13,492 nucleotides of DNA from Naegleria gruberi (GCA_000004985.1 GG738994.1); one strand, 5' to 3'. Positions 2 to 10,282 are shown, counted from the stretch's first letter. The notes: generated by a model from the sequence alone, not told the origin. Translations and numbers: made by a program.

Positions 2-1762
2 AATGCTCTATATATTGCTAAAACTACATTTATTCGTATGTTTGATCTTACCACTAGAAAAATGTCTTTAATTGCTGGTAGTGAAACAGAGGCTGCTCCG
101 AGTGGAGGCTATAATACTTATGACAGGAACCCAGAGGATGCCAGATTTACTTTTATTAAGGAAGTGAGAGTATTAGATGGAGTAGTGTATTTTCTTAATA
201 ATTGTTATGTGACTGACAGTTGTATCAATTATTTTTCTTTGGGTGATCGTATTTTTAACCTTGACAGGGGTTATACTGAAACTGGTGTGTCTTTTGTTGT
301 CTTCAAGGATAGTGAGGGTGAAGTCAATTCACTCGTAGCTACAGCAGAAAAGTTGGTCTATCATAAGAGGCCACATTATAATAGATTTATTAGGAGAACG
401 GAAGCTGATACCATTATCAAGTTGATTGATAACAAAGCTGGAAAACAGGCCTTGGTAACAACCACCAAAGTTATCGATTTTTCAAATGAAGCTACTCTCT
501 TCACTTTTGATTCACCATTTGCAGCTAGGGATGTGGTAATGATATCAGCAACAGCTATTGTATATTCTAGTAGTAGTGGCTATTACTTGAACAAAGTTGA
601 TGCTAAAGGAGAAACAGTACTTGCAGGTATTGGAAACACTATCCAAATTGGAGATTATGGACCTGGTGAAGAAGCATACGGAACCACTACTAAAGGTGTA
701 GCAGTTGTTGACTCAACTTTATACATTTCAGAATATGATAATATGAGAATAAGAAAAGTCAACATTAATACTGGAATTATTTATCCCCATATTACTTTAA
801 CATGCTACCCTTCAAAACTCAAAATGTCCAAAGACAATAACAAGTTATTTTTCCTATGTAGTGACGGTCCAAGTGTATCTATAATGCAGTACATTTTCAG
901 TACAAATTTAATAACAACTGTAAAGTCAGGTTTTCCAGCTGCCACATTTAAGGGTTTTACCTTTGACGCAATTACTGGAGCACTTTTTTATTCAACTTAT
1001 TCTAATGGTGTTACTCAAATTTGTAGACTTAATCCTAATTCCTGTAAGACAATCACTACACAATTTACTGGTGGTGTTTATGGAGACATTGATGCCTACA
1101 ATGGATACATCTATGTTATCTCAAGTGTTGGTTCCATCTATAAGATAAGATATGATACAATGGACGTACAAGTAATTGGCGCCTTCTATCTTGCTGGCTA
1201 TCCAACAATACACATTACAAAACAAGGTACCATATTAATTGGCTCTCATACAGCTGTTTATAGATTTGAAGGTGCACAGGATGGTTCTTTTTATCCAGTT
1301 TCAACTAATTTTGTAATTGCTGGTGATGCTCTTCCACCAGAGGGTACAACCAGTTTATGGTATAGAGAAATCAGCCAAGTTGCAATGTCTGATGATTATC
1401 AAAGATTATTTATTGCTGATCCACATCACCTTGGTGGTGTTACACAATTGAATGCCAAGACCTCATCCTGTTGGTCCTACAAGTATACTAATACTGCAGG
1501 AAATCTGGTATTACCAACTGGAACTTATTGTTCAATTTCTTGTAATTCTGTTGCTTCTAATAATCCAACCGTTTGTAGTGGTTCTGGTTCTTGTACTGCT
1601 TACTTGGTCAATCCTTCTTACTTGGGAAAACCATTTTGTGATTGTGAATATGGCTATTCTGGTACAACTTGTTCTGATTATACCTGTNTTGGTTACCCAA
1701 AAAATGAAACAACTGGTTGTAAATCTCATGGTACTTGTGTTGGATATAATACTTGTAACTGA
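2..1762 (+). CDS. 5'-truncated ORF of a large extracellular protein. It has NHL-type beta-propeller repeats (about 2-1450) and then six-Cys EGF-like repeats from 1469. It stops at TGA 1760-1762, which sits at a consensus Cys position.
   Basis: The 574-aa ORF in frame 2 stays open upstream of ATG 38 to the window edge (..NALYIAKTTFIR-MFDL..), so the Met at 38 is probably internal. NHL-like motifs include GVAVVDSTLYISEYDNMRIRKVNINTG, FTFDAITGALFYSTYSNG and YNGYIYVISSVGSIYKIRYD. From 1469 the repeats are EGF-like, for example CSGSGSCTAYLVNPSYLGKPFCDCEYGYSGTTC and CKSHGTCVGYNTCN. Position 1688 is an ambiguous base. Confidence 0.85.
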   Translation, partial: NALYIAKTTFIRMFDLTTRKMSLIAGSETEAAPSGGYNTYDRNPEDARFTFIKEVRVLDGVVYFLNNCYVTDSCINYFSLGDRIFNLDRGYTETGVSFVVFKDSEGEVNSLVATAEKLVYHKRPHYNRFIRRTEADTIIKLIDNKAGKQALVTTTKVIDFSNEATLFTFDSPFAARDVVMISATAIVYSSSSGYYLNKVDAKGETVLAGIGNTIQIGDYGPGEEAYGTTTKGVAVVDSTLYISEYDNMRIRKVNINTGIIYPHITLTCYPSKLKMSKDNNKLFFLCSDGPSVSIMQYIFSTNLITTVKSGFPAATFKGFTFDAITGALFYSTYSNGVTQICRLNPNSCKTITTQFTGGVYGDIDAYNGYIYVISSVGSIYKIRYDTMDVQVIGAFYLAGYPTIHITKQGTILIGSHTAVYRFEGAQDGSFYPVSTNFVIAGDALPPEGTTSLWYREISQVAMSDDYQRLFIADPHHLGGVTQLNAKTSSCWSYKYTNTAGNLVLPTGTYCSISCNSVASNNPTVCSGSGSCTAYLVNPSYLGKPFCDCEYGYSGTTCSDYTCXGYPKNETTGCKSHGTCVGYNTCN

Positions 1763-2024
1763 GCGAATGGTTATGGCGGAGCACAATGCCACTTTTTCTT
1801 GCAATGGTACACTTTCTAGTAGCAATCAAGTTTGTGGAGGCAATCGTAAGTGTATTGGTCCAAATACTTGTGAACCAATGTGTTATGGAATTGCTGCAAG
1901 TAAAACTGCCACAGTTTGTTCTGGACAAGGTAATTGTACAAGTGAAAACCATTGCACATGTTCATATGGTAGATATGGTTCAAAGTGTGAATATTCTCTT
2001 CCATGTGAATCGCAATGTAGTTTG
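1763..2024 (+). CDS. Continuation of the same EGF-repeat coding sequence. The frame changes twice: frame 2 runs to about 1795, then frame 0 runs to TGA 2025-2027.
   Basis: Directly after the TGA, frame 2 reads ANGYGGAQCHFF. This completes the motif C-N-[TGA]-A-N-GYGG-x-x-C, which matches CNCNNGYGGKNC further downstream. Frame 0 then reads SCNGTLSSSNQVCGGNRKCIGPNTCEPMCYG...CSGQGNCTSENHCTCSYGRYGSKCEYSLPC, which are perfect six-Cys EGF-like repeats. Removing one T from the T5 run at 1793-1797 joins the two frames. Confidence 0.6.
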
Positions 2025-3009
2025 TGAAAATGGGGGAAATTGTACCTTTAGTAAGGGTGTTGAGGTTTGTTCTTGTCCTCCAGGATTTGCTGGTAAAACA
2101 TGTGATCCAGCATGTTCATCAAATAAGAATTGTACAGACCAATATTTCCCTATTTGTGACGTTTCAGGTGTTTGTACATATGAATGTTTATCAGATGGTG
2201 ATTGTGCTACAGTTGTTGGCAGACCAATGTGCGAAACTGGAAGAAACGAATTCGACATTGGTGGTAAATGTATTGCAGGATGTATAAATGATACATCATG
2301 CATTGCAAAGGGAATGCAATATTGTAATGATGGTGTCTGTAGTAATTATGCTTGTGCAGCAGATGCTGATTGTGTTTCTCGTGGCTATTCCCAATGTGCT
2401 GATTTTGAATGCAGAGATGAATGTCATGTCAATAGTGATTGTTCCGACTTTGGTAAATACTCCATCTGTGGAGCTGATCCATCCAATAATTCTACCTATC
2501 ACAGATGCATTCCAAGATCATGTTTCAATAACAGTGATTGTGCAGATCCAATGACTGGAACTCCAAGATGTGATTTGAGTACTTATTTATGTGCAAAGGC
2601 AGATTGTTCAATCGATTCTGATTGTTACTCTTATGGTTATTCACTTTGTTCCAATAGTTTTTGTAAAATTGAATGTCTTTCTCATACTGATTGCAACAAA
2701 CCTGGTTTGCAAAGATGTGGTTTGAACAATACTGTACCTACGGAATATCGTAGATGTTTGGAATCTTGTGATTCTACTTGTGAAAAATGTTCAGAAAACA
2801 GAATCACATGTTTGCAATGCTCAACTGGATTTGTTGTAGACAATCTTGGTAAATGTGTTATTGATTCCACCAATCCTGTTAACAACTCTACTAATCCTCA
2901 AAACAATACCAATCCAGTCGATCCAGTCAACCCAACTAACGATACTAACCCAATTAAAATACTACTACCCCAAGTAGTAATAATACCACTCCAAGTAATA
3001 ATACCATAA
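2005..3009 (+). CDS. Continuation in frame 1. It contains one EGF-like repeat, seven tandem four-Cys repeats of about 30 aa (CxxxSDC..C..C), laminin/TNFR-like CxxC..GF modules, and an N/T/P-rich stalk rich in N-glycosylation sequons. The stop at 3007-3009 is probably an artefact.
   Basis: Frame 1 resumes the consensus at NVVCENGGNCTFSKGVEVCSCPPGFAGKTC. Repeats follow, such as ECLSDGDCATVVGRPMC, CAADADCVSRGYSQCADFEC, CHVNSDCSDFGKYSIC, CFNNSDCADPMTGTPRC and CSIDSDCYSYGYSLC. The tail reads NPVNNSTNPQNNTNPVDPVNPTNDTNP. From 2958 the +2 frame reads NTTTPSSNNTTPSNNTINTNNGQSTI into the gap. One extra A in the A4 run at 2956-2959 would join it to the upstream frame. Confidence 0.65.
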   Translation: MNRNVVCENGGNCTFSKGVEVCSCPPGFAGKTCDPACSSNKNCTDQYFPICDVSGVCTYECLSDGDCATVVGRPMCETGRNEFDIGGKCIAGCINDTSCIAKGMQYCNDGVCSNYACAADADCVSRGYSQCADFECRDECHVNSDCSDFGKYSICGADPSNNSTYHRCIPRSCFNNSDCADPMTGTPRCDLSTYLCAKADCSIDSDCYSYGYSLCSNSFCKIECLSHTDCNKPGLQRCGLNNTVPTEYRRCLESCDSTCEKCSENRITCLQCSTGFVVDNLGKCVIDSTNPVNNSTNPQNNTNPVDPVNPTNDTNPIKILLPQVVIIPLQVIIP

Positions 3010-3037
3010 ATACCAACAATGGACAATCCACAATAAT

Positions 3038-3634
3038 NNNNNNNNNNNNNNNNNNNNNNNNNNNNNNNNNNNNNNNNNNNNNNNNNNNNNNNNNNNNNNN
3101 NNNNNNNNNNNNNNNNNNNNNNNNNNNNNNNNNNNNNNNNNNNNNNNNNNNNNNNNNNNNNNNNNNNNNNNNNNNNNNNNNNNNNNNNNNNNNNNNNNNN
3201 NNNNNNNNNNNNNNNNNNNNNNNNNNNNNNNNNNNNNNNNNNNNNNNNNNNNNNNNNNNNNNNNNNNNNNNNNNNNNNNNNNNNNNNNNNNNNNNNNNNN
3301 NNNNNNNNNNNNNNNNNNNNNNNNNNNNNNNNNNNNNNNNNNNNNNNNNNNNNNNNNNNNNNNNNNNNNNNNNNNNNNNNNNNNNNNNNNNNNNNNNNNN
3401 NNNNNNNNNNNNNNNNNNNNNNNNNNNNNNNNNNNNNNNNNNNNNNNNNNNNNNNNNNNNNNNNNNNNNNNNNNNNNNNNNNNNNNNNNNNNNNNNNNNN
3501 NNNNNNNNNNNNNNNNNNNNNNNNNNNNNNNNNNNNNNNNNNNNNNNNNNNNNNNNNNNNNNNNNNNNNNNNNNNNNNNNNNNNNNNNNNNNNNNNNNNN
3601 NNNNNNNNNNNNNNNNNNNNNNNNNNNNNNNNNN
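3038..3634. other. Assembly gap: a run of 597 N characters.
   Basis: The gap is seen directly as a run of n. The X-only ORFs on the track across it are artefacts. Confidence 0.99.
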
Positions 3635-3653
3635 TGAACTTCACTTATTGTAA

Positions 3654-4330
3654 TGTACAACTGGTTACATAACTACTGATCTCTCTCAACCATGTTCAAT
3701 GTGTAACTCTACCCTTAAACTAACTCTTGATCAAAATGGAAAATGTGTTTGTGATGCTAGCAATGGATACGTTGTTGGTGCAACAGGAGCTTGTGTCAAG
3801 TACACAGCCAAGTGTCCTATTGCATGTGGTTCCAATGGGGCCTGTCAATTGTTAACTCCAACAACTTCAGGATGTGTGTGTAAGAATGGTTTTATCACAA
3901 CCAATGAAACTAAACCATGTTCATCTTGTCCTCAAGGAAAGATTAATTCTTCCTCTAAATGTGTATGTGATACAGTCAATGGATACACTATAAATGGTAC
4001 TGGTTGTGGCTGTGATGCTTCTCGTGGATATATTGCTGGTTCTGATGGACTTTGTTCTTGCAATGCAAATCTCAATTTGGTTACCTATGGTTCATCATGT
4101 GTCTGTAAGCTTAACTATCATTTAGTTAATGGATCTTGTGTTTTAATTCCTCCAGCTTGTTATGGTAGTTCGAGTTGTGGAATCCATGGACAATGTATGT
4201 ATGAGGATGTAAATAACACTGCCCGTACAATCTGTCAATGTGACACTGGATACACCACTGCCTCTTACAGTACCTCTCTTTGTGTAGACTGTGCTAGAGA
4301 TTATCGTATGGATAAAAATTATATCTGTAA
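3654..4330 (+). other. Cys-rich repeat region with CxCDxxNGYxxxxxGxC modules and CxxC/CxxxxC pairs.
   Basis: Examples are NGKCVCDASNGYVVGATGACV, SSKCVCDTVNGYTINGTGCGCDASRGYIAGSDGLCSC, and a six-Cys unit CYGSSSCGIHGQCMYEDVNNTARTICQCDTGYTT. Confidence 0.6.
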
Positions 4331-7300
4331 AAAGAGCTGTGTGCTCGATGGTTACAATGATGATTGTACTACCTATGTTCCTGCTGATATTTGTGCTTAT
4401 ACAAATCCCCAAACAATTCCATTCTGTGGATTTAATATTTACAGGGTAAGACAAAGAAGATTTTTAAGGCAGAATTATACAGGTGAACTTGTTTATATTG
4501 GAAGGGACATGGTTAAAGATTTGGACAAATCAATGATTTATTATGATACATTGGCTAAAAACAAAACCAGAGATGCCATGCTTGAACTTGCCAAAGCAGG
4601 AGTAGTTTGTGACAGCAAATGTAAAGAACATTTGACTGTCCTGTATTGTAAATCATTGGTACCTATGTGTGATGGAACCGATGCTCCAATAGAAAGAACA
4701 TTTTGTAAGCAAACTTGTATTGACATTTGGTCCCAAAAGTTAAATTACACTGTTAATTTGGAATCAAAGTGTGAAGGATTGTCAGTAGAAGATTCTTGTG
4801 ACTCGCGTCCATATATCAACCCTTCAACTCAATGCTTTGGTGTTCACTATTTAAATTCATCTGTTTGTTCAGGAAGGGGTCAATGCATTCAAAAAGATAC
4901 TTGTAATTGTAATAATGGATATGGAGGAAAAAATTGTGAACAATTCGTTTGTTTTATTTATAAGGATACCGATATACCAGTTTGTAATTATCGTGGAAAG
5001 TGCGTTGGACCACACACTTGTGCCTGTAATGGTCCTTGGACTGGAAGTGATTGTCAGATACCTCTCTGTAATCGTAAAACTGAAAAACAAGGCGGTTGCA
5101 ATTTCAATGGAGTTTGTAAGCTTATTCTTGGAAGTCCATCTTGTATCTGTGCTTCAAGTGGTAATTGGGCTAAATCAGATGTTTCTTGCTCTGTTTGTGC
5201 AACTGGATGGGGAGGACCTGGTTGTAATGTTCCAGTTTGTAATGGGGTTATATCAACAAGTCCAGATGTTTGTGGTGGAAGAGGTGGATGTGATTCGATT
5301 CGTCTTGCACAACCATCTTGTACTTGTTTGAAAGGATATGAAGGAAACAATTGCCAAAACTTTAAGTGTAATGAAATTGATAGAAATAGCACTTCTGTGT
5401 GTTCTGGACGTGGTACTTGTGCTGGCTTAAACACTTGTGTTTGTAAGGGTAATTTCGACCCAGCTAAATTCTGTTCTGAATGTACACCGGCCTATAATGG
5501 AACTGATTGTACTGAAAGAGTTTGTACTGAAGCAGGTACTTGTAATGGTAATGGTATTTGTAATTCAAATGGAAAATGTGACTGTACTGGAAATTGGGTT
5601 GGTCAATTTTGTGACAAATGTTTACCTGGATTTGTTGGTTCTTCATGTAATATTAAATGTGATTGTAATGGAAGAGGAAGTTGTAACAATGATGGATCAT
5701 GTATCTGTTCTGAAAATGCAGAAGGTACCAAATGTGAAACTTGTAAAACAGGATGGTATGGTGATAAGTGTGATTTCTCAATTGATGCTTCTTCATTTGG
5801 ATTTTCATCAAATGGTGACTCCATCTCAGGAACAGTTTATTCTTCTCTCAAGAGAAAGTTTGATTGTTCTGAACTAATTTTGGAATCTTCAAAGCTAGGT
5901 AAAGGAGCAGTGTGCGTTGTTAATAGTGATTCAAACTTGATGACCATTTCTCTTGGAAGAAATGCTTCAATTGTCCTTGATGAGGTTCTTACATTCAAGT
6001 CATACTTTAATTCTTCATCAACTGTTTCTGTAACATTTGCTGAAAGAGATTATATACCAACAAATCCTTCCATCTCTGTCACTACTGATAAGACAACAAT
6101 TTCAAGAGCTTGTGGTTTCGTCTATTTGGATGCCTCTGGCTCCACATCAACAGATCGTAGAACATTGCAATTCTCTTGGAGTGTTCAGTCTGCACCTTCT
6201 CCACTTAATGGTCTTACTTTAACTAGTTTAATTACTAATCAACAAGGGTCTTCAGGAGTCACTATTAATTCAAACAGTCTTGGTGTTGGCAGTTATTCTG
6301 TTACAGCAACCATCACAAGTCCATTTTCTGGTTTAAGTGCTTCTTCAACTGTCTCATTCCTGGTTACTGATTTGACAGCTCCTATCGTTTCAATTAAGGA
6401 GGGCTCTGAAAGTACAATGACTATTGGAAAGATTTATTCAATCAATCCAAAGATTACATTCCCAAGCTGTTATGGTGGAAATGGACCATTTACGTTTACA
6501 TATGCTTTGGATGTTAGAAATGTCATTCCAGTAGTTGTTAAACAAAAGTATAATATTCTCGTCTTCAGTGAAGATTATACCAAGATTACTGAACCAGGCG
6601 ATTATTACTTCACTTTCACTGTTTCTCAAGCTGGAGCATCAAGTGTGACAGTTCCATTTAAGGTAACTGCTAAGGCACTTCCTTTGAGCGTTGGATTCAA
6701 TATTGGTGATAGAACTCAATCTGTGGAAACTGAAGTTTCGTTCACCGTTTCCAAGTCTGACCCAAGTAATCCTTCAGATAATTCTGGAACAGTTGTCTTG
6801 TCATGTTTGGATCTTGACAATAGTGCAGATTGTAGCGGATTTACCTCTGGTGAAGCAAATATTGACCAAACTACTTTGAAATTCTCTAAATTTATGGTTC
6901 CCGGCCCATATCTCTTCACTGCTACATTTACAAAGGGTTCAAGAAGTAGCTCTGCAAGTATTAAAGTGACTGTTATTGATCAACCAAAGGACACTGTCAT
7001 TAGAGTGTCTATTGCTGCTCCTCCAAATACTGACTTGACAGCTGTTGATCCATCTTCTGATTTCATATTACAAGCTTATTCATCAGATGTTCTGTCAACT
7101 GACAGAGTTTACACATGGTCATCACCTGACCTTGATATGTCTGGAATTGTTACCAGTAACAAGTACATTCTTCTTCCAAAGATCTTACTTGTTCCAGGTA
7201 CTTTCCATATTATTAACCTTAATGTAGTAGATGATCAAAGATCTGGTGAAGCAACTATTTCATTTACAATCAACTCTCCACCAACAGTTGGTATTTTGGA

Positions 7301-8816
7301 AGTTTCTCCTGCTACAGGTGTTGCTTTACAAGACGATTTCCAAATCAAGTGTGGTAATGGTTGGTATGATACTCAACTTCCTTTGATGTATGAATTCAAA
7401 TACAGAGTGGTAGGAGATTCAACTTGGAAGGTTTTGTCAGAAATGTCTGAAAAGAAATCAATCACTTCTCAATTACCAGCTGGTAAAATTGAAATCAAGA
7501 CAATTGTTTATGATTCTCTTTCTGCCTCCTCTGAAACTACAACTCTTGTTACTGTTACTGTCCCTTCCCTTAGTGAAGCCATTGCTGCTTTGAATGTTTC
7601 TCAAATGGGTACAGTTTCAGTTGCTTCAGTTTCATCTGCATTGAGTTTAGTAAGTGAAATTACTGTTTCCACTCCAGAACAAAAACAAGCCCTAGCACAA
7701 GCTAATAAGGCTCTTGTAGACAAATTCTTTGAACAACAAGACGTACAATCTCAAATCGTTTCTGAAACTTCTCAATCTGCCAGTTCAAAAGTTTCTGTTA
7801 TTTCTTCCATTAGTAATTGTTTAGGAAACTTCCCAGATGAAACCATTTCCAAGGTTATTGATCAGTTCTCTTCAACTATCTCATCAGCTTCTTCTTCATC
7901 TAATGTTAATATGAAGACAGATGATATTCAAAACTCCAAGGAAGCTGCTTTGAACCTCAAGAGCTATGTTTCAAATGCCATTTCAAAGAGAGCAGTAACT
8001 ACTCTTACTGTCAAGGATTTGGCAAAGATTGATGGCATCTATAGCAATATTGTTAATGTCGAACTTAAGAGTGCAGTTGCTGATATGCCAGCTGTCAGAA
8101 GTACTGGTGTTGATTCATCTATTTATGCCAGACTTGTCAGTATTTCAACCCTTAGTGGTTTGTCTGGTTTTGTTGATGATACAAGCTTTTCTTCATCCTA
8201 TTTTGAAATGAAGAATGTTTTCAGCTCTATGAAGAGATTTGAAAATGTTGACAGTGTTAAAATTGTCACAAAGGTTTACAAGTTGACCAACTCAACATTG
8301 AAAGCAATCAGTAAGGTGATTGACTTTGTCATTACTGAAAATGATAACAACCTTTCCTTTGCATCTGAAAATATCACTCTTGCCACAATCAAGATTGAAA
8401 AAGTCAAAACAGCAAGAACCTCATTCACACAAACACAAATTTCATGTTATTCAGTTCAAAACAATGTCTATTCCATCTCGCCAAATTGTAAAGTTGTTAG
8501 CACCAATAGTGCAACTGCAGATATTTCTGTTACTAACACTGGTTCCTATGTTGTTGCTGAAGTCACTGTGGACAGCCCAATTACTCCAACAAATTCCACG
8601 CCGAAACCAACAGAATCGAATAATAATAACATTGTCACTCCAATTCCTGGTGTTAATCAATCAGACTCCAACTTGTATTACATCATTTTTGTTCTGGCCA
8701 TAATACCTATTGTGTTATTGATAATTGTTGGTATATTGGTTTGTATTTGTTGTATGATCAAGAAGAAGAAGAAAAGACCAAGCCCAGGTCCAAGAGATAT
8801 CGAACTAACTGCTTAA
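3654..8816 (+). CDS. A 5.1 kb intronless exon encoding the C-terminal about 1720 aa of a giant type-I membrane protein. The order is Cys-rich repeats, a Frizzled-like CRD, nine EGF-like repeats, a REJ-like module, a helical Ser-rich region, a GPS-like remnant, a mucin-like stalk, one transmembrane helix and a short Lys-rich tail. The ATG at 3699 is not the true start.
   Basis: The track gives 1705 aa with no stop over 5118 nt of AT-rich DNA. The same frame is open from 3654, right after a TAA at 3651-3653 that abuts the gap. There it reads CTTGYITTDLSQPC, which mirrors CSTGFVVDNLGKC at 2820-2860. There is no signal peptide at MCNSTLKL. The C-terminus is YYIIFVLAIIPIVLLIIVGILVCICCMI followed by KKKKKRPSPGPRDIELTA and TAA at 8814-8816. 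Confidence 0.92.
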   Translation, partial: CTTGYITTDLSQPCSMCNSTLKLTLDQNGKCVCDASNGYVVGATGACVKYTAKCPIACGSNGACQLLTPTTSGCVCKNGFITTNETKPCSSCPQGKINSSSKCVCDTVNGYTINGTGCGCDASRGYIAGSDGLCSCNANLNLVTYGSSCVCKLNYHLVNGSCVLIPPACYGSSSCGIHGQCMYEDVNNTARTICQCDTGYTTASYSTSLCVDCARDYRMDKNYICKKSCVLDGYNDDCTTYVPADICAYTNPQTIPFCGFNIYRVRQRRFLRQNYTGELVYIGRDMVKDLDKSMIYYDTLAKNKTRDAMLELAKAGVVCDSKCKEHLTVLYCKSLVPMCDGTDAPIERTFCKQTCIDIWSQKLNYTVNLESKCEGLSVEDSCDSRPYINPSTQCFGVHYLNSSVCSGRGQCIQKDTCNCNNGYGGKNCEQFVCFIYKDTDIPVCNYRGKCVGPHTCACNGPWTGSDCQIPLCNRKTEKQGGCNFNGVCKLILGSPSCICASSGNWAKSDVSCSVCATGWGGPGCNVPVCNGVISTSPDVCGGRGGCDSIRLAQPSCTCLKGYEGNNCQNFKCNEIDRNSTSVCSGRGTCAGLNTCVCKGNFDPAKFCSECTPAYNGTDCTERVCTEAGTCNGNGICNSNGKCDCTGNWVGQFCDKCLPGFVGSSCNIKCDCNGRGSCNNDGSCICSENAEGTKCETCKTGWYGDKCDFSIDASSFGFSSNGDSISGTVYSSLKRKFDCSELILESSKLGKGAVCVVNSDSNLMTISLGRNASIVLDEVLTFKSYFNSSSTVSVTFAERDYIPTNPSISVTTDKTTISRACGFVYLDASGSTSTDRRTLQFSWSVQSAPSPLNGLTLTSLITNQQGSSGVTINSNSLGVGSYSVTATITSPFSGLSASSTVSFLVTDLTAPIVSIKEGSESTMTIGKIYSINPKITFPSCYGGNGPFTFTYALDVRNVIPVVVKQKYNILVFSEDYTKITEPGDYYFTFTVSQAGASSVTVPFKVTAKALPLSVGFNIGDRTQSVETEVSFTVSKSDPSNPSDNSGTVVLSCLDLDNSADCSGFTSGEANIDQTTLKFSKFMVPGPYLFTATFTKGSRSSSASIKVTVIDQPKDTVIRVSIAAPPNTDLTAVDPSSDFILQAYSSDVLSTDRVYTWSSPDLDMSGIVTSNKYILLPKILLVPGTFHIINLNVVDDQRSGEATISFTINSPPTVGILEVSPATGVALQDDFQIKCGNGWYDTQLPLMYEFKYRVVGDSTWKVLSEMSEKKSITSQLPAGKIEIKTIVYDSLSASSETTTLVTVTVPSLSEAIAALNVSQMGTVSVASVSSALSLVSEITVSTPEQKQALAQANKALVDKFFEQQDVQSQIVSETSQSASSKVSVISSISNCLGNFPDETISKVIDQFSSTISSASSSSNVNMKTDDIQNSKEAALNLKSYVSNAISKRAVTTLTVKDLAKIDGIYSNIVNVELKSAVADMPAVRSTGVDSSIYARLVSISTLSGLSGFVDDTSFSSSYFEMKNVFSSMKRFENVDSVKIVTKVYKLTNSTLKAISKVIDFVITENDNNLSFASENITLATIKIEKVKTARTSFTQTQISCYSVQNNVYSISPNCKVVSTNSATADISVTNTGSYVVAEVTVDSPITPTNSTPKPTESNNNNIVTPIPGVNQSDSNLYYIIFVLAIIPIVLLIIVGILVCICCMIKKKKKRPSPGPRDIELTA
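4392..4799 (+). other. Frizzled-type cysteine-rich domain (FZ-CRD)-like module.
   Basis: There are ten Cys. The core spacing CKEHLTVLYC-KSLVPMC-DGTDAPIERTFC-KQTC gives C-x8-C-x6-C-x11-C-x3-C. This matches the Fz CRD core (..FLCSMYAPVC..PPCRSLC..) as I recall it. A conserved Pro precedes the third Cys, and a Trp (IDIW) follows the CxxxC pair. Confidence 0.4.
4833..5771 (+). other. Array of about nine six-Cys EGF-like repeats of the tenascin / Dictyostelium type.
   Basis: Examples are VCSGRGQCIQKDTCNCNNGYGGKNCEQFVC, VCNYRGKCVGPHTCACNGPWTGSDCQIPLC, CSVCATGWGGPGCNVPVC, CDKCLPGFVGSSCNIKCDCNGRGSCNNDGSCIC and CETCKTGWYGDKCDF. Confidence 0.85.
6100..7570 (+). other. REJ-like module (receptor for egg jelly / polycystin-1 type). 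The core signature lies at 7270-7400.
   Basis: A Cys-poor, Ser/Thr-rich beta-strand region shows the pattern FTINSPPTVGILEVSPATGVALQDDFQIKCGNGWYDTQLPLMYEFKYRV. This fits the REJ signature nAPPsgG..v.P..GvAL...F.i.C.gW.D...PL.Y as I remember it from PKD1 and suREJ. Upstream there are SW/TW-containing repeats (SWSVQSAPSPLNG, TWSSPDLDMSG). Confidence 0.5.
8676..8759 (+). other. A single predicted transmembrane helix. It follows a Ser/Thr/Pro/Asn stalk (8580-8675) and precedes a (AAG)n-encoded KKKKK stop-transfer sequence.
   Basis: The sequence YYIIFVLAIIPIVLLIIVGILVCICCMI is 28 consecutive hydrophobic residues, with a basic cluster immediately after it. Confidence 0.8.
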
Positions 8817-9026: not shown

Positions 9027-9914
9027 TCATGTAACTCTGTAAACCTTGATTCTATTATTTCCAGTATCAACAATAAACAAACGAGATGACCCGTAGCAGA
9101 ATGCAATTCCAGAAGGATATTTCAATGAATTTTCATGGTTTCCAAAGCTACCAATGCAAGTAGAACCAGAAAAGGGATTGTTAGGATGAAATTTTGAAAT
9201 TCTATGTGAATCCCACTCTGTAAGAAATATATCACCAGTTGACTTGTCCACAAAAACAGAGTTTGGTGCTTGAAATTCTCCCTTATCATTCCCAATACTT
9301 CCAAAGCTACTAATAAATTCTCCATTAGATTTCAGTATCTGTATGCGATTATTTCCACTGTCAGAAATAATGATATTCCCAGCACTGTCAATGTCAATAT
9401 CTCTTGGGAATGAGAATTGACCATATTCCTTTCCCATAGATCCAATCGATTTCAGTAATTCACCACCTGGAGAAAAAACTACAATTCTATGTTTAAACCA
9501 ATCACAAACATAGATATTTCCCTCATAGTCAACCACAACACCTGTTGGAGAATCCATTACATTCTTTGTTGTAACTCCTCCCCATCTCCATATCTCATTT
9601 CCATTAAAATCATATTTACAAATCAATGAATCTCGAGTGAAACTAATAATTAAAGTGTGATCCCAATGAACTGTCACTGCATTTGGTTTGAATGGTGTCG
9701 TAAACATGTACTTGAATGTCAGAGTTGACTCATCAAAAACCTGAATACGTCTATTATCTGTATCCACAACAAATATTAATTGATTTTTGAAATCAATAGC
9801 CACATCAGATGGATTCTTGAATTGACCATTCTGAGAACCATAACTTCCAATGCATCCAATCAATTCAAACTCGGACTGGCTCGTTTTCATTCCCGAACAA
9901 CCATTCACAGTCAT
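9027..9914 (-). CDS. Six-blade NHL-repeat beta-propeller protein. The ATG is at 9912-9914, and the track's TTG start at 9917 is an alternative-start artefact.
   Basis: Classic NHL repeats are present: PSDVAIDFKNQLIFVVDTDNRRIQVFDES, PTGVVVDYEGNIYVCDWFKHRIVVF, PRDIDIDSAGNIIISDSGNNRIQIL, PNSVFVDKSTGDIFLTEWDSHRISKF and PSGIAFCYGSSRLFIVDTGNNRIKVYRVT. The stop is TGA at 9027-9029. Confidence 0.85.
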   Translation of the reverse strand: MTVNGCSGMKTSQSEFELIGCIGSYGSQNGQFKNPSDVAIDFKNQLIFVVDTDNRRIQVFDESTLTFKYMFTTPFKPNAVTVHWDHTLIISFTRDSLICKYDFNGNEIWRWGGVTTKNVMDSPTGVVVDYEGNIYVCDWFKHRIVVFSPGGELLKSIGSMGKEYGQFSFPRDIDIDSAGNIIISDSGNNRIQILKSNGEFISSFGSIGNDKGEFQAPNSVFVDKSTGDIFLTEWDSHRISKFHPNNPFSGSTCIGSFGNHENSLKYPSGIAFCYGSSRLFIVDTGNNRIKVYRVT

Positions 9915-9917
9915 CAA

Positions 9918-10282
9918 TGTTGATGTTGTTTGATACTGACTATTATGATGACCATTAAAATTATGAAAATAGGACAGTGATGAATTCTTCTTAATTTCAT
10001 ATTGTTATTATTATTATTATCAATCATATAATTGTCATTGTTACTCATCGGAGTAGTTTCTATCAATGTTGTATGATGATCATGATCCATCAGTGCACTA
10101 CTATTAAAATTACTATTATTATTGTTGTTATTGTGATTATGATTGGGTAGAGATGAAGTCATCATCATCAACCTTCCATCAGAATCATAATGATGTGATG
10201 GTTGTGATGTTGGTGGTACCTCCGAAGCACAATCATCAAAGGATCGTTTCATTCGGTTTTTTTGTTTGTTGTATTGATGCAT
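9918..10282 (-). CDS. Possible N-terminal low-complexity, Asn/His-rich extension of the NHL gene. It lies in a different frame and needs a frame shift at about 9915-9990 to join.
   Basis: The 122-aa ORF reads MHQYNKQKNRMKRSFDDCASEVPPTSQPSHHYDSDGRLMMMTSSLPNHNHNNNNNNSNFNSS...DNNNNNN. It has moderate GC and is unlike spacer sequence. Just after the Asn tract it crosses into the NHL frame, which opens immediately after the (TAA)n reading of the same tract. Confidence 0.45.
10001..10018 (-). repeat. (AAT)6 tract encoding poly-Asn. A second imperfect AAT/AAC/CAT tract encoding NHNHNNNNNNSNFNSS lies at about 10100-10146.
   Basis: Seen directly in the sequence. Confidence 0.85.

Follow-up and report, generated by a model that had tools for sequence, protein, structure and literature searches.

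The window analysed here, a stretch of 13,492 nucleotides of Naegleria gruberi DNA (GCA_000004985.1, GG738994.1) read on one strand, carries a large gene for an uncharacterised, predicted cell-surface glycoprotein (Table 1) that adds one more protein to a receptor class already known. Its open reading frame (ORF) runs to a stop codon at 8814-8816, and because sequence of about 36% GC gives a random stop every 15-20 codons, 1720 open codons would lie far beyond chance (about 1e-50). The product is 100% identical to an NCBI 'predicted protein' of N. gruberi. The ORF is thus confirmed as real, an earlier note on this DNA having already described an uninterrupted frame of 5.1 kb and the order of the regions along it correctly. 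The same identity refutes that note's description of an 'amoebozoan-type' receptor, since the gene is that of a heterolobosean (Heterolobosea, Discoba).

Table 1. Features of the N. gruberi locus, with positions counted from the first letter of the window and residues from the first codon of the ORF.
Feature	Position	Strand	Residues and remarks
Assembly gap, run of N	3038..3634	.	the gene's 5' part, with start codon and signal peptide, is lost in it
Coding-like sequence between gap and ORF	3636..3653	+	+1 frame reads NFTYCN
ORF	3654..8816	+	1720 codons plus stop; model from ATG 3699 = NCBI predicted protein
N-terminal Cys-rich repeats, C-x-C-x2-3-G-Y/F type	3654..4358	+	1-235
Frizzled-type CRD-like module, 11 Cys	4359..4841	+	236-396
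About 7 EGF-like modules, teneurin/tenascin/laminin type	4833..5777	+	394-708
Cys-poor, Ser/Thr-rich beta region holding REJ	5778..7586	+	Pfam REJ at 1060-1311
REJ signature segment INSPPTVGILEVSPATGVALQDDFQIKCGNGWYDTQLPLMYEF	7269..7397	+	1206-1248, inside the Pfam REJ stretch
Post-REJ GAIN-like module	7542..8594	+	1297-1647
Degenerate GPS-like motif CYSVQNNVYSISPNCKVVSTNSATADISVTNTGSYVVAEV	8445..8564	+	two Cys vs four; N-T-G-S vs N-H-[TL]-T
Thr/Pro/Asn-rich juxtamembrane stalk	8595..8672	+	1648-1673
Single transmembrane helix LYYIIFVLAIIPIVLLIIVGILVCICCMI	8673..8759	+	1674-1702
Polybasic Lys-rich cytoplasmic tail KKKKKRPSPGPRDIELTA	8760..8813	+	18 aa

The protein is one of a family of Naegleria paralogs with at least eight members. 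P0002 aligns with 95% of the query at 45% identity and, signal peptide included, is longer by about 950 residues at its N-terminus; other N. gruberi paralogs are P0011, P0013, P0017, P0023 and P0037, and P0038 is a homolog from N. lovaniensis. The ORF itself is not the complete gene, being truncated at its 5' end by an assembly gap that stops 19 nt upstream. It begins at the codon after a TAA (3651-3653), its product lacks a signal peptide, and its first ATG (3699, giving 1705 aa) is the annotated start of the model. The coding pattern of the Cys-rich repeats extends 5' of this ATG and, if a frame slip of 1 nt is allowed, reaches the edge of the gap. Because such a slip would fuse NFTYCN to CTTGYITTD and restore the C-x-C-xx-G-Y repeat motif of the family, the TAA is probably a sequence error or an indel beside the gap. 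In the overall explanation that we favour, the ORF would represent the 3' five-sixths or so of the gene and the annotated start would be an artefact of the assembly gap. The truncation had been overlooked in the earlier note.

It is possible, if clearly less probable, that the ORF is the C-terminal part of a far longer gene (>2,900 aa) that would include a coding region on the + strand at 2-3037 and would have been broken up by the gap and sequencing errors. This region (a beta-rich part, EGFs, Cys-rich repeats and an N/T/P-rich linker) lies on the same strand as the ORF, is open at the start of the scaffold and, in a shifted frame, at the edge of the gap, and its terminal linker resembles those found mid-protein in paralogs P0037 and P0041. 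The absence of a start and a signal peptide from the ORF also fits a longer gene, as does the way in which the distant relatives P0003 and P0046 join N-terminal propeller-like repeats to EGF, REJ and GAIN. However, the upstream region is interrupted by an in-frame TGA and at least three frame changes, it shows no specific similarity to paralog N-termini other than in its EGF repeats, and P0002, the closest paralog, has only Cys-rich repeats upstream; the linker might equally lead into the transmembrane segment and tail that a separate gene has inside the gap. It seems quite improbable that what this unplaced scaffold of 13.5 kb carries is a pseudogene in decay or a redundant haplotig, and not an expressed gene. 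The scaffold is small and has a gap and an internal N, the frame of the neighbouring coding region is disrupted, an in-frame stop comes 16 nt past the gap, and the protein was not found in the gene-position index. Against these points, 1720 codons stay open in AT-rich DNA, the Cys framework, the REJ signature and the transmembrane segment are all conserved relative to the paralogs, and, with the closest paralog only 45% identical, the copy is no haplotype duplicate of any gene found here.

Most of the cysteines of the protein (92 of 105) fall within residues 1-706. For the N-terminal repeats the sole Pfam match was a weak one to DUF5874, below its cut-off. The EGF array is recognised by EGF_Teneurin (E 1.7e-9, in five stretches) and by EGF_laminin at its cut-off, and includes modules of the 8-Cys laminin/tenascin type; the earlier note had been right about the array itself and somewhat high in counting about nine repeats, against about seven here.

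Lying between these two regions, residues 236-396 are probably a divergent Frizzled-type cysteine-rich module, judging from profile and spacing comparisons. Fz was the top Pfam family both for the module alone (E 1.2e-5, 26.3 bits) and for a 221-aa segment containing it (E 2.2e-5, 25.4 bits), with a match at residues 295-361 (nt 4536-4736, profile positions 18-91 of 110) that in neither case reached the gathering threshold of 32.1 bits (PF01392), and a Pfam scan of the full-length product did not report Fz at E<=1. The cysteine spacing of the query (C238-x8-C247; C323-x8-C332-x6-C339-x11-C351-x3-C355-x17-C373-x8-C382) parallels Fz C1-C2 and C3-C7 in its C-x8-C and C-x8-C-x6-C-x11-C-x3-C segments, the corresponding spacing of FZD2 being C-x8-C-x6-C-x9-C-x3-C-x6-C-x16-C. 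Nine of the ten positions of the Fz framework can plausibly be assigned; C8 is absent, C258 and C319 are extra, and an insertion of about 60 aa separates C2 from helix 1. The 'Fz-like CRD' of the earlier note thus stands as a consistent signal below threshold, and its ten-Cys module as a Cys-rich module with 11.

These shortcomings could also be read as the mark of a novel helical Cys-rich domain that mimics Fz spacing from outside the Fz/NPC1/folate-receptor CRD superfamily, an alternative that we consider less likely. An AF2 model of the module, built from a 2-row MSA, shows three long helices at a pLDDT of 41.4, which makes it unusable, and a Foldseek search with it gave no significant match. 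A profile of eight family modules searched against the PDB returned only non-significant matches (E 0.06-1.4, none below 0.058), yet 31 of the 33 were Fz-type CRDs from six receptor families, among them those of Frizzled, ROR2, MuSK and sFRP, with C3-x8-C4-x6-C5 aligned. Five of the eight modules matched Pfam Fz at E<=10 (P0011, 7.9e-4; P0017, 1.1e-3), and Fz was the top family for four independent paralog modules. The signal does not arise from Cys spacing alone, since three shuffles of the module that preserved the Cys positions gave no match. One module also touched Folate_rec, a family of the same fold superfamily as the Fz CRD. The module thus resembles Frizzled-type CRDs (FZD, sFRP, ROR, MuSK, Smoothened) in its C-x8-C and C-x8-C-x6-C-x(9-11)-C-x3-C spacing and predicted helical core, and departs from them in its setting, placed as it is before the EGFs of a REJ protein and not N-terminal to a 7TM or kinase domain.

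The REJ domain is a module common to polycystin-1 and the egg-jelly receptor of sea-urchin sperm. Its presence here is genuine: Pfam REJ (PF02010) matches with E 2.6e-33 and 115.8 bits, where the gathering cut-off is 25 bits, falls into two stretches, the best of them at nt 6831-7586, and covers positions 149-421 of the 452 in the profile. The match takes in the segment around 7270-7400 on which the earlier note had staked its REJ assignment, and the signature quoted there lies within it. Relatives and paralogs (P0002, P0003, P0004, P0008) score 122-139 bits against the same family. Residues 709-1296 are 26% Ser plus Thr with only 7 Cys, and the part upstream of REJ probably consists of PKD/Ig-like beta domains, by analogy with relatives.

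Polycystin-1-family proteins place GAIN/GPS after REJ, and in the explanation that we favour residues 1297-1647 would be a GAIN-like module that has diverged and whose GPS is dead. An AF2 model of this region (mean pLDDT 51.7, the beta subdomain mostly <50) has about seven helices in a Ser-rich stretch (about 1306-1477) followed by beta strands (about 1491-1640). The top five PDB matches in a Foldseek search with this model were all adhesion-GPCR GAIN domains, of BAI3 (4DLO), BAI2 (8OEK), latrophilin-1 (4DLQ) and CELSR1 (8VY2), with E 8e-5 to 1.3e-3 over 300-350 aligned columns and TM-scores of only about 0.27; the five-row alignment behind the model included relatives with a canonical GPS, which may have steered the fold. 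At the sequence level, Pfam GPS (PF01825) and GAIN found no match in the query at E<=1, nor was a GPS found in paralog P0002. HMMs of the Naegleria subfamily and of the canonical-GPS subfamily detected each other no better than they did reversed-sequence controls, and hhalign gave the post-REJ region a probability of 2-12% (local E 0.02 at probability 2%).

Such results might be expected if the region were a lineage-specific stalk of helices plus beta strands with no relation to GAIN, its GPS-like string resembling a GPS by chance. We regard this as rather unlikely: a length of about 350 aa, the order of helices and strands and the position between REJ and membrane are the same as in relatives with a Pfam-significant GPS. 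Three of these (P0010, at 36 bits, P0051 and P0090) match Pfam GPS with 26-36 bits at the equivalent position, and a GPS or GPS-like motif follows REJ in every retrieved REJ-bearing relative that was checked there. In addition, a mixed family profile matches the GPS strands of ADGRL3, ADGRB2 and ADGRF1, the first GPS Cys is invariant across the family alignment, and the C-x13-C spacing fits the canonical C-x11-14-C.

As modelled, the divergent GAIN-like module shares with adhesion-GPCR GAINs a helical then a beta subdomain and a Cys pair in the penultimate strands just ahead of the membrane; it differs in having no 7TM, only C1598 and C1612 of the four Cys (I/V and V/T take the second-pair positions) and neither the catalytic His, in either plausible register, nor the Leu at -1. 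Where canonical relatives have C-N-H-T/L-T-x-F the query reads V-T-N-T-G-S-Y-V-V, so the earlier note had rightly seen a GPS-like string without the His-Leu-Thr triad, and S-T-G-x-Y recurs in ten of ten members of the subfamily. GAIN autoproteolysis is abolished by mutation of H, L or T (PMC3321182, PMC4810088), and PC1 is cleaved at an HL/T tripeptide that is needed for its function (PMC4810088). The degenerate stalk is probably non-cleaving. Lacking the triad and one of the GPS disulfides, the protein would not be expected to undergo autoproteolysis, to shed an NTF or to work through a tethered agonist, and the module would be expected to stay uncleaved constitutively, as some GAINs, recombinant BAI3 among them, are reported to do (Arac et al. 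2012, PMC3321182).

Residues 1674-1702 form the only Kyte-Doolittle peak above 1.8 (maximum 3.49). One C-terminal transmembrane segment with a Lys-rich tail is what the earlier note had described, the tail being 18 and not 14 aa long. The Pfam scan of the ORF product found no match to PLAT, PKD_channel or 7tm families (7tm_2), and this bears out the proposed single-pass architecture of EGF and REJ, similar to that of suREJ1. With one hydrophobic segment, the short tail and neither PLAT nor PKD_channel, a PKD1-type polycystin is rejected; an adhesion GPCR is likewise rejected by the single transmembrane segment and the absence of a 7tm_2 match. The protein shares with the polycystin-1 family (PKD1, PKD1L1-3, PKDREJ, suREJ3) a strong Pfam REJ followed by what is probably a juxtamembrane GAIN/GPS-type module, whereas it has one transmembrane segment instead of 11, no PLAT/LH2 or TRP-like channel domain, no PKD repeats at threshold and no equivalent of the HL/T tripeptide cleaved in PC1 (PMC4810088).

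The likeness to suREJ1 is that of two large modular surface glycoproteins with EGF-type and REJ modules in the ectodomain and a function in ligand binding by that ectodomain, which on the Naegleria side is proposed. suREJ1 is anchored in the membrane once, at its C-terminus, and has a short tail. Its ectodomain carries one EGF module and two of the C-type lectin kind (1996, PMC2120838). The Naegleria ORF product, which has EGF, REJ and a single transmembrane segment, gave no Pfam match to Lectin_C; Cys-rich repeats, about seven EGFs and the Fz-like CRD take the place of the lectin modules, the GPS is degenerate, and the protein belongs to a discoban protist and not to sperm.

Taken as a whole, and with a probability of about 0.6, we propose that the gene encodes a heavily disulfide-bonded type-I surface glycoprotein of the Naegleria paralog family that crosses the membrane once. 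The membrane-distal Cys-rich repeats, the divergent Frizzled-type CRD and the EGF modules would form its ligand- or adhesion-binding end, REJ and the GAIN-like module with its dead GPS would make a rigid, uncleaved juxtamembrane stalk, and one helix with its polybasic tail would anchor the protein in the membrane. Signalling, if any, would require a partner membrane protein. P0017, P0022, P0037, P0038 and P0041 have no tail after their terminal hydrophobic stretch, and some paralogs, to judge from their C-terminal sequences alone, may have GPI-signal-like ends; such a replacement of the transmembrane segment and tail in several paralogs would suggest that it is the ectodomain that carries the function. 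That function could be adhesion, or the capture of prey, substrate or ligand, and the domain content makes an ectodomain-driven adhesion or ligand-capture receptor the most likely role of this protein in Naegleria.

The window is AT-rich (GC ~36%), and its + strand holds one very long open frame, which runs from after a TAA (3651-3653) to a stop at 8814-8816 and comprises 1720 codons, or 1705 aa from the first ATG at 3699. At this composition a stop would be expected every 15-20 codons, so the frame is far longer than chance would produce. Its product follows the layout that an earlier note had read from the sequence, from Cys repeats, a Cys module and an EGF array through a Ser/Thr-rich and a helical region to one TM helix, although we count ~7 EGF modules where about nine had been proposed, and a charged tail of 18 aa instead of 14. 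Most cysteines (92 of 105) lie in residues 1-706, and the ectodomain contains 20 N-x-S/T sequons.

Features of the ORF product (residues numbered from nt 3654) and of the neighbouring sequence in the window
Feature	Position	Strand	Remark
Upstream coding region	2-3037	+	
N run (scaffolding gap)	3038-3634		597 bases
Cys-rich repeats	residues 1-235 (3654-4361)	+	weak Pfam DUF5874 match (E 2.2e-5, 25.2 bits, cut-off 27.1)
11-Cys module	residues 236-396	+	
EGF-like array	residues 394-708	+	several modules of 8-Cys type
Cys-poor Ser/Thr-rich region	residues 709-1296	+	
Best REJ stretch	residues 1060-1311 (6831-7586)	+	profile positions 149-421 of 452
Helical Ser-rich region, then beta strands	residues 1297-1647	+	
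Thr/Pro/Asn-rich stalk	between post-REJ module and TM helix	+	
Single hydrophobic helix	residues 1674-1702	+	sole Kyte-Doolittle peak
18-aa tail KKKKKRPSPGPRDIELTA	C-terminal	+	
NHL-repeat ORF	9027-9917	-	
Asn-rich ORF	9914-10282		adjoins NHL ORF

The firmest assignment is the REJ domain, for which Pfam REJ (PF02010) scored 115.8 bits (gathering score 25) at E 2.6e-33. The significant match covers the 7270-7400 segment flagged previously, and the REJ signature recognized there (7269-7397) falls within it, so the outcome proposed as refuting the REJ claim did not occur. At E<=1 the same full-length scan listed neither PLAT nor PKD_channel, 7tm or C-type lectin, and phmmer, run with the whole protein on the PDB sequences, returned an EGF match only, to SCARF1. 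A polycystin-1-like protein with 11 TM segments was rejected on the single hydrophobic helix and the lack of a PLAT or PKD_channel match, and an adhesion GPCR on the single TM and the lack of a 7tm match. Unlike polycystin-1 in its membrane part, the protein has the single-pass layout with EGF and REJ that had been likened to sea-urchin suREJ1, which is indeed the closest known architecture. suREJ1 combines EGF, two C-type lectin modules and a REJ module of ~700 aa (PMC2120838), whereas the Naegleria protein lacks the lectin modules and carries a larger number of EGFs together with an Fz-like CRD and a seemingly dead GPS. It is an uncharacterised, newly recognised member of a known receptor class.

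An NCBI/UniRef entry, "predicted protein [Naegleria gruberi]", from a heterolobosean (Discoba), matches the ORF product at 100% identity; the amoebozoan origin suggested earlier is therefore rejected, and the label "amoebozoan-type" was wrong. Looking up the locus of this exact protein gave no record. The 5.1 kb frame is uninterrupted, as had been described, but that account of the gene was incomplete at the 5' end, which appears to lie in the scaffolding gap. This gap separates two + strand coding regions, and the ORF opens 19 nt after it. Because the ORF starts without a signal peptide, because CTTGYITTDLSQPCS, the residues preceding the annotated Met, already fit the family's C-x-C-xx-G-Y repeat, because the 17 nt that separate the gap from the TAA translate as NFTYCN in the +1 frame, where a single-base slip would yield ...YC(N/K)CTTGY..., a perfect repeat unit, and because P0002, the nearest paralog (2628 aa; 45% identical across 95% of the query), joins the alignment only at its residue 954 and carries a signal peptide and ~950 additional N-terminal Cys-rich residues, truncation of the gene by the gap is well supported, as is the view of ATG 3699 as an annotation artefact. 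The public gene model, which starts at this ATG without a signal peptide, is incomplete and unfit for use as the full-length protein.

In the coding region upstream of the gap, a beta-rich part leads into EGF-like repeats, then Cys-rich repeats and finally an N/T/P-rich linker. This region is already open where the scaffold begins, runs open into the gap in a shifted frame and is disrupted several times, with an in-frame TGA at ~1760 at an expected EGF Cys codon (TCN*ANGYGGAQC), changes of frame near 1775, 2020 and 2960, and a lone N at 1688. Sequence of low quality, a pseudogene or an N-terminal portion of the REJ gene could each account for it; in blastx against all retrieved relatives it gave EGF-level similarity only, which speaks neither for nor against membership of the same gene. 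Downstream, the minus-strand ORF codes for a beta-propeller protein with NHL repeats (Pfam NHL, E 5e-31), which has no relation to the REJ gene, and the adjoining Asn-rich ORF may be the N-terminal part of that protein (to ~10282).

The 11-Cys module had been described as Fz-like. Fz is not listed for the query in the full-length Pfam scan; the isolated module has Fz as its top family (E 1.2e-5, 26.3 bits; E 2.2e-5 in a 221-aa context), and isolated modules of the paralogs P0011, P0017 and P0038 match it at E 7.9e-4, 1.1e-3 and 0.33, every one of these matches being below the Pfam gathering score of 32.1 bits. Three shuffles with each Cys kept in place gave zero matches at E<=10. Such modules are also found in P0002, P0011, P0017, P0037 (two copies) and P0038, and at the N-terminus of the more distant P0010. 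An HMM of eight modules, run against every PDB sequence, gave 33 matches at E<=10 (best E 0.058), 31 of them Fz-type CRDs (FZD1, 2, 6, 7, 8, 10, ROR2, MuSK and sFRP3), and aligned the family's C-x8-C-x6-C to Fz C3-C4-C5; a 2-row CRD profile gave ribosomal-protein noise only. The cysteines of the query are spaced C238-x8-C247 ... C323-x8-C332-x6-C339-x11-C351-x3-C355-x17-C373-x8-C382, and those of FZD2 C-x8-C-x6-C-x9-C-x3-C-x6-C-x16-C; relative to the Fz framework, the canonical C8 is absent and C258 and C319 are extra. With a 2-row MSA, AF2 gave a model too poor to use (pLDDT 41.4), for which Foldseek returned nothing. The Fz-like claim is plausible but unproven, and the module is probably a divergent Fz-superfamily CRD below the curated membership threshold. 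In the N. gruberi paralog P0037 the modules are in tandem (residues ~870-1060 and 1060-1230). P0010, a JGI metagenome protein truncated at the N-terminus, begins with a related module (residues ~1-120) and combines it with a Pfam-significant GPS, so the combination of CRD, REJ and GPS is not confined to the non-cleaving subfamily.

Between REJ and the membrane lies a module of ~350 aa, where a GAIN/GPS region had been anticipated. In the distant REJ relatives P0010 (36 bits), P0051 and P0090 a Pfam-significant GPS ends the collinear module, and an HMM built from the module in these relatives aligns with the GAINs of adhesion GPCRs across 190-240 positions. The AF2 model of the query module has ~7 helices followed by beta strands (mean pLDDT 51.7, beta subdomain mostly <50), and its top five Foldseek PDB matches are all GAIN (BAI3 4DLO, BAI2 8OEK, latrophilin 4DLQ, CELSR1 8VY2; E 8e-5 to 1.3e-3, 300-350 aligned columns, TM-scores ~0.27), although its MSA, very shallow like that of the CRD, had 5 rows and included canonical-GPS relatives, which could bias the fold. 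The query's C-x13-C ... I-S-V-T-N-T-G-S-Y-V-V aligns with the canonical C-x(11-14)-C ... C-x-C-N-H-T/L-T-x-F, the first GPS Cys is invariant in the family alignment, and in the PDB a mixed family profile picked out GPS strands in ADGRL3, ADGRB2 and ADGRF1 (E 5e-4 to 2e-2). Neither the HMM of the Naegleria subfamily nor that of the subfamily with canonical GPS detected the other above reversed controls, and hhalign, global and local, gave a weak, non-significant link between the two; we therefore make no claim of GAIN homology at the sequence level for the query. Position and fold matches favour a divergent GAIN, which we regard as the likely identity of the module, but the subfamily HMM comparison does not.

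Whatever its fold, the sequence of this module is not expected to allow cleavage, since the catalytic His and the Leu at -1 are absent and GAIN autoproteolysis is lost on mutation of H, L or T (PMC3321182; PMC4810088). The GPS-like string without a cleavage triad was correctly recognized: it retains two of the four GPS cysteines, and 10/10 subfamily members share both these two cysteines only and the loss of His and Leu.

This close subfamily is a Naegleria expansion (P0001, P0002, P0011, P0013, P0017, P0023 and P0037 in N. gruberi; P0038 in N. lovaniensis), annotated only as predicted or hypothetical proteins, and in the library searched no paper on Naegleria dealt with REJ, polycystin-type or Fz CRD proteins. 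A TM helix followed by a basic tail is seen in four members (the query, P0002, P0013 and P0023), and five (P0017, P0022, P0037, P0038 and P0041) end in a hydrophobic stretch without a tail that looks like a GPI-attachment signal; this variation points to a function centred on the ectodomain rather than on signalling by the cytoplasmic tail. The distant relatives P0051, P0068, P0072, P0089 and P0009, the last from JGI, combine REJ, an EGF insert and GAIN with a canonical or near-canonical GPS (CxCNH[TL]T) and ~5-9 hydrophobic segments after it; a full Pfam scan of P0051 did not find PLAT, PKD_channel or 7tm_2. They may represent a REJ-GAIN-multiTM architecture of interest in its own right.

The query protein is probably a type-I surface glycoprotein in which the distal Cys-rich, CRD and EGF end would bind a ligand or surface, the REJ and GAIN-like unit would serve as an uncleaved, mechanically robust stalk, and any signal would need a co-receptor. 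Speculatively, a CICC motif where the TM helix reaches the cytoplasm, together with the polybasic tail, hints at palmitoylation and interaction with acidic lipids. More broadly, we would give a probability of about 0.3 to a lineage-expanded Naegleria family in which a true Fz-superfamily CRD is fused to a REJ-GAIN stalk, autoproteolysis has been permanently lost, and anchoring is by TM or GPI.

REJ is among the least understood parts of polycystin-1. Many ADPKD missense mutations lie in its REJ-GAIN region (PMC4810088), and the ancient origin of GAIN was already known from its presence in Tetrahymena and Dictyostelium (PMC3321182). Should the assignment as an Fz-type CRD hold, this fold would extend into Discoba in an unusual context. 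The broader reading would imply that Fz-type CRD, REJ and GAIN were present and shuffled before Discoba split from the other supergroups, or were transferred between supergroups, and would make Naegleria a natural, genetically simple system for the role of REJ-GAIN without cleavage or a channel partner. A culturable free-living protist with a family of single-pass or GPI-type proteins, in which a strong REJ stands beside a GAIN-like module seemingly unable to self-cleave, suggests that the unit of REJ plus juxtamembrane module is old and can work in the absence of cleavage, of an 11-TM body and of a channel.
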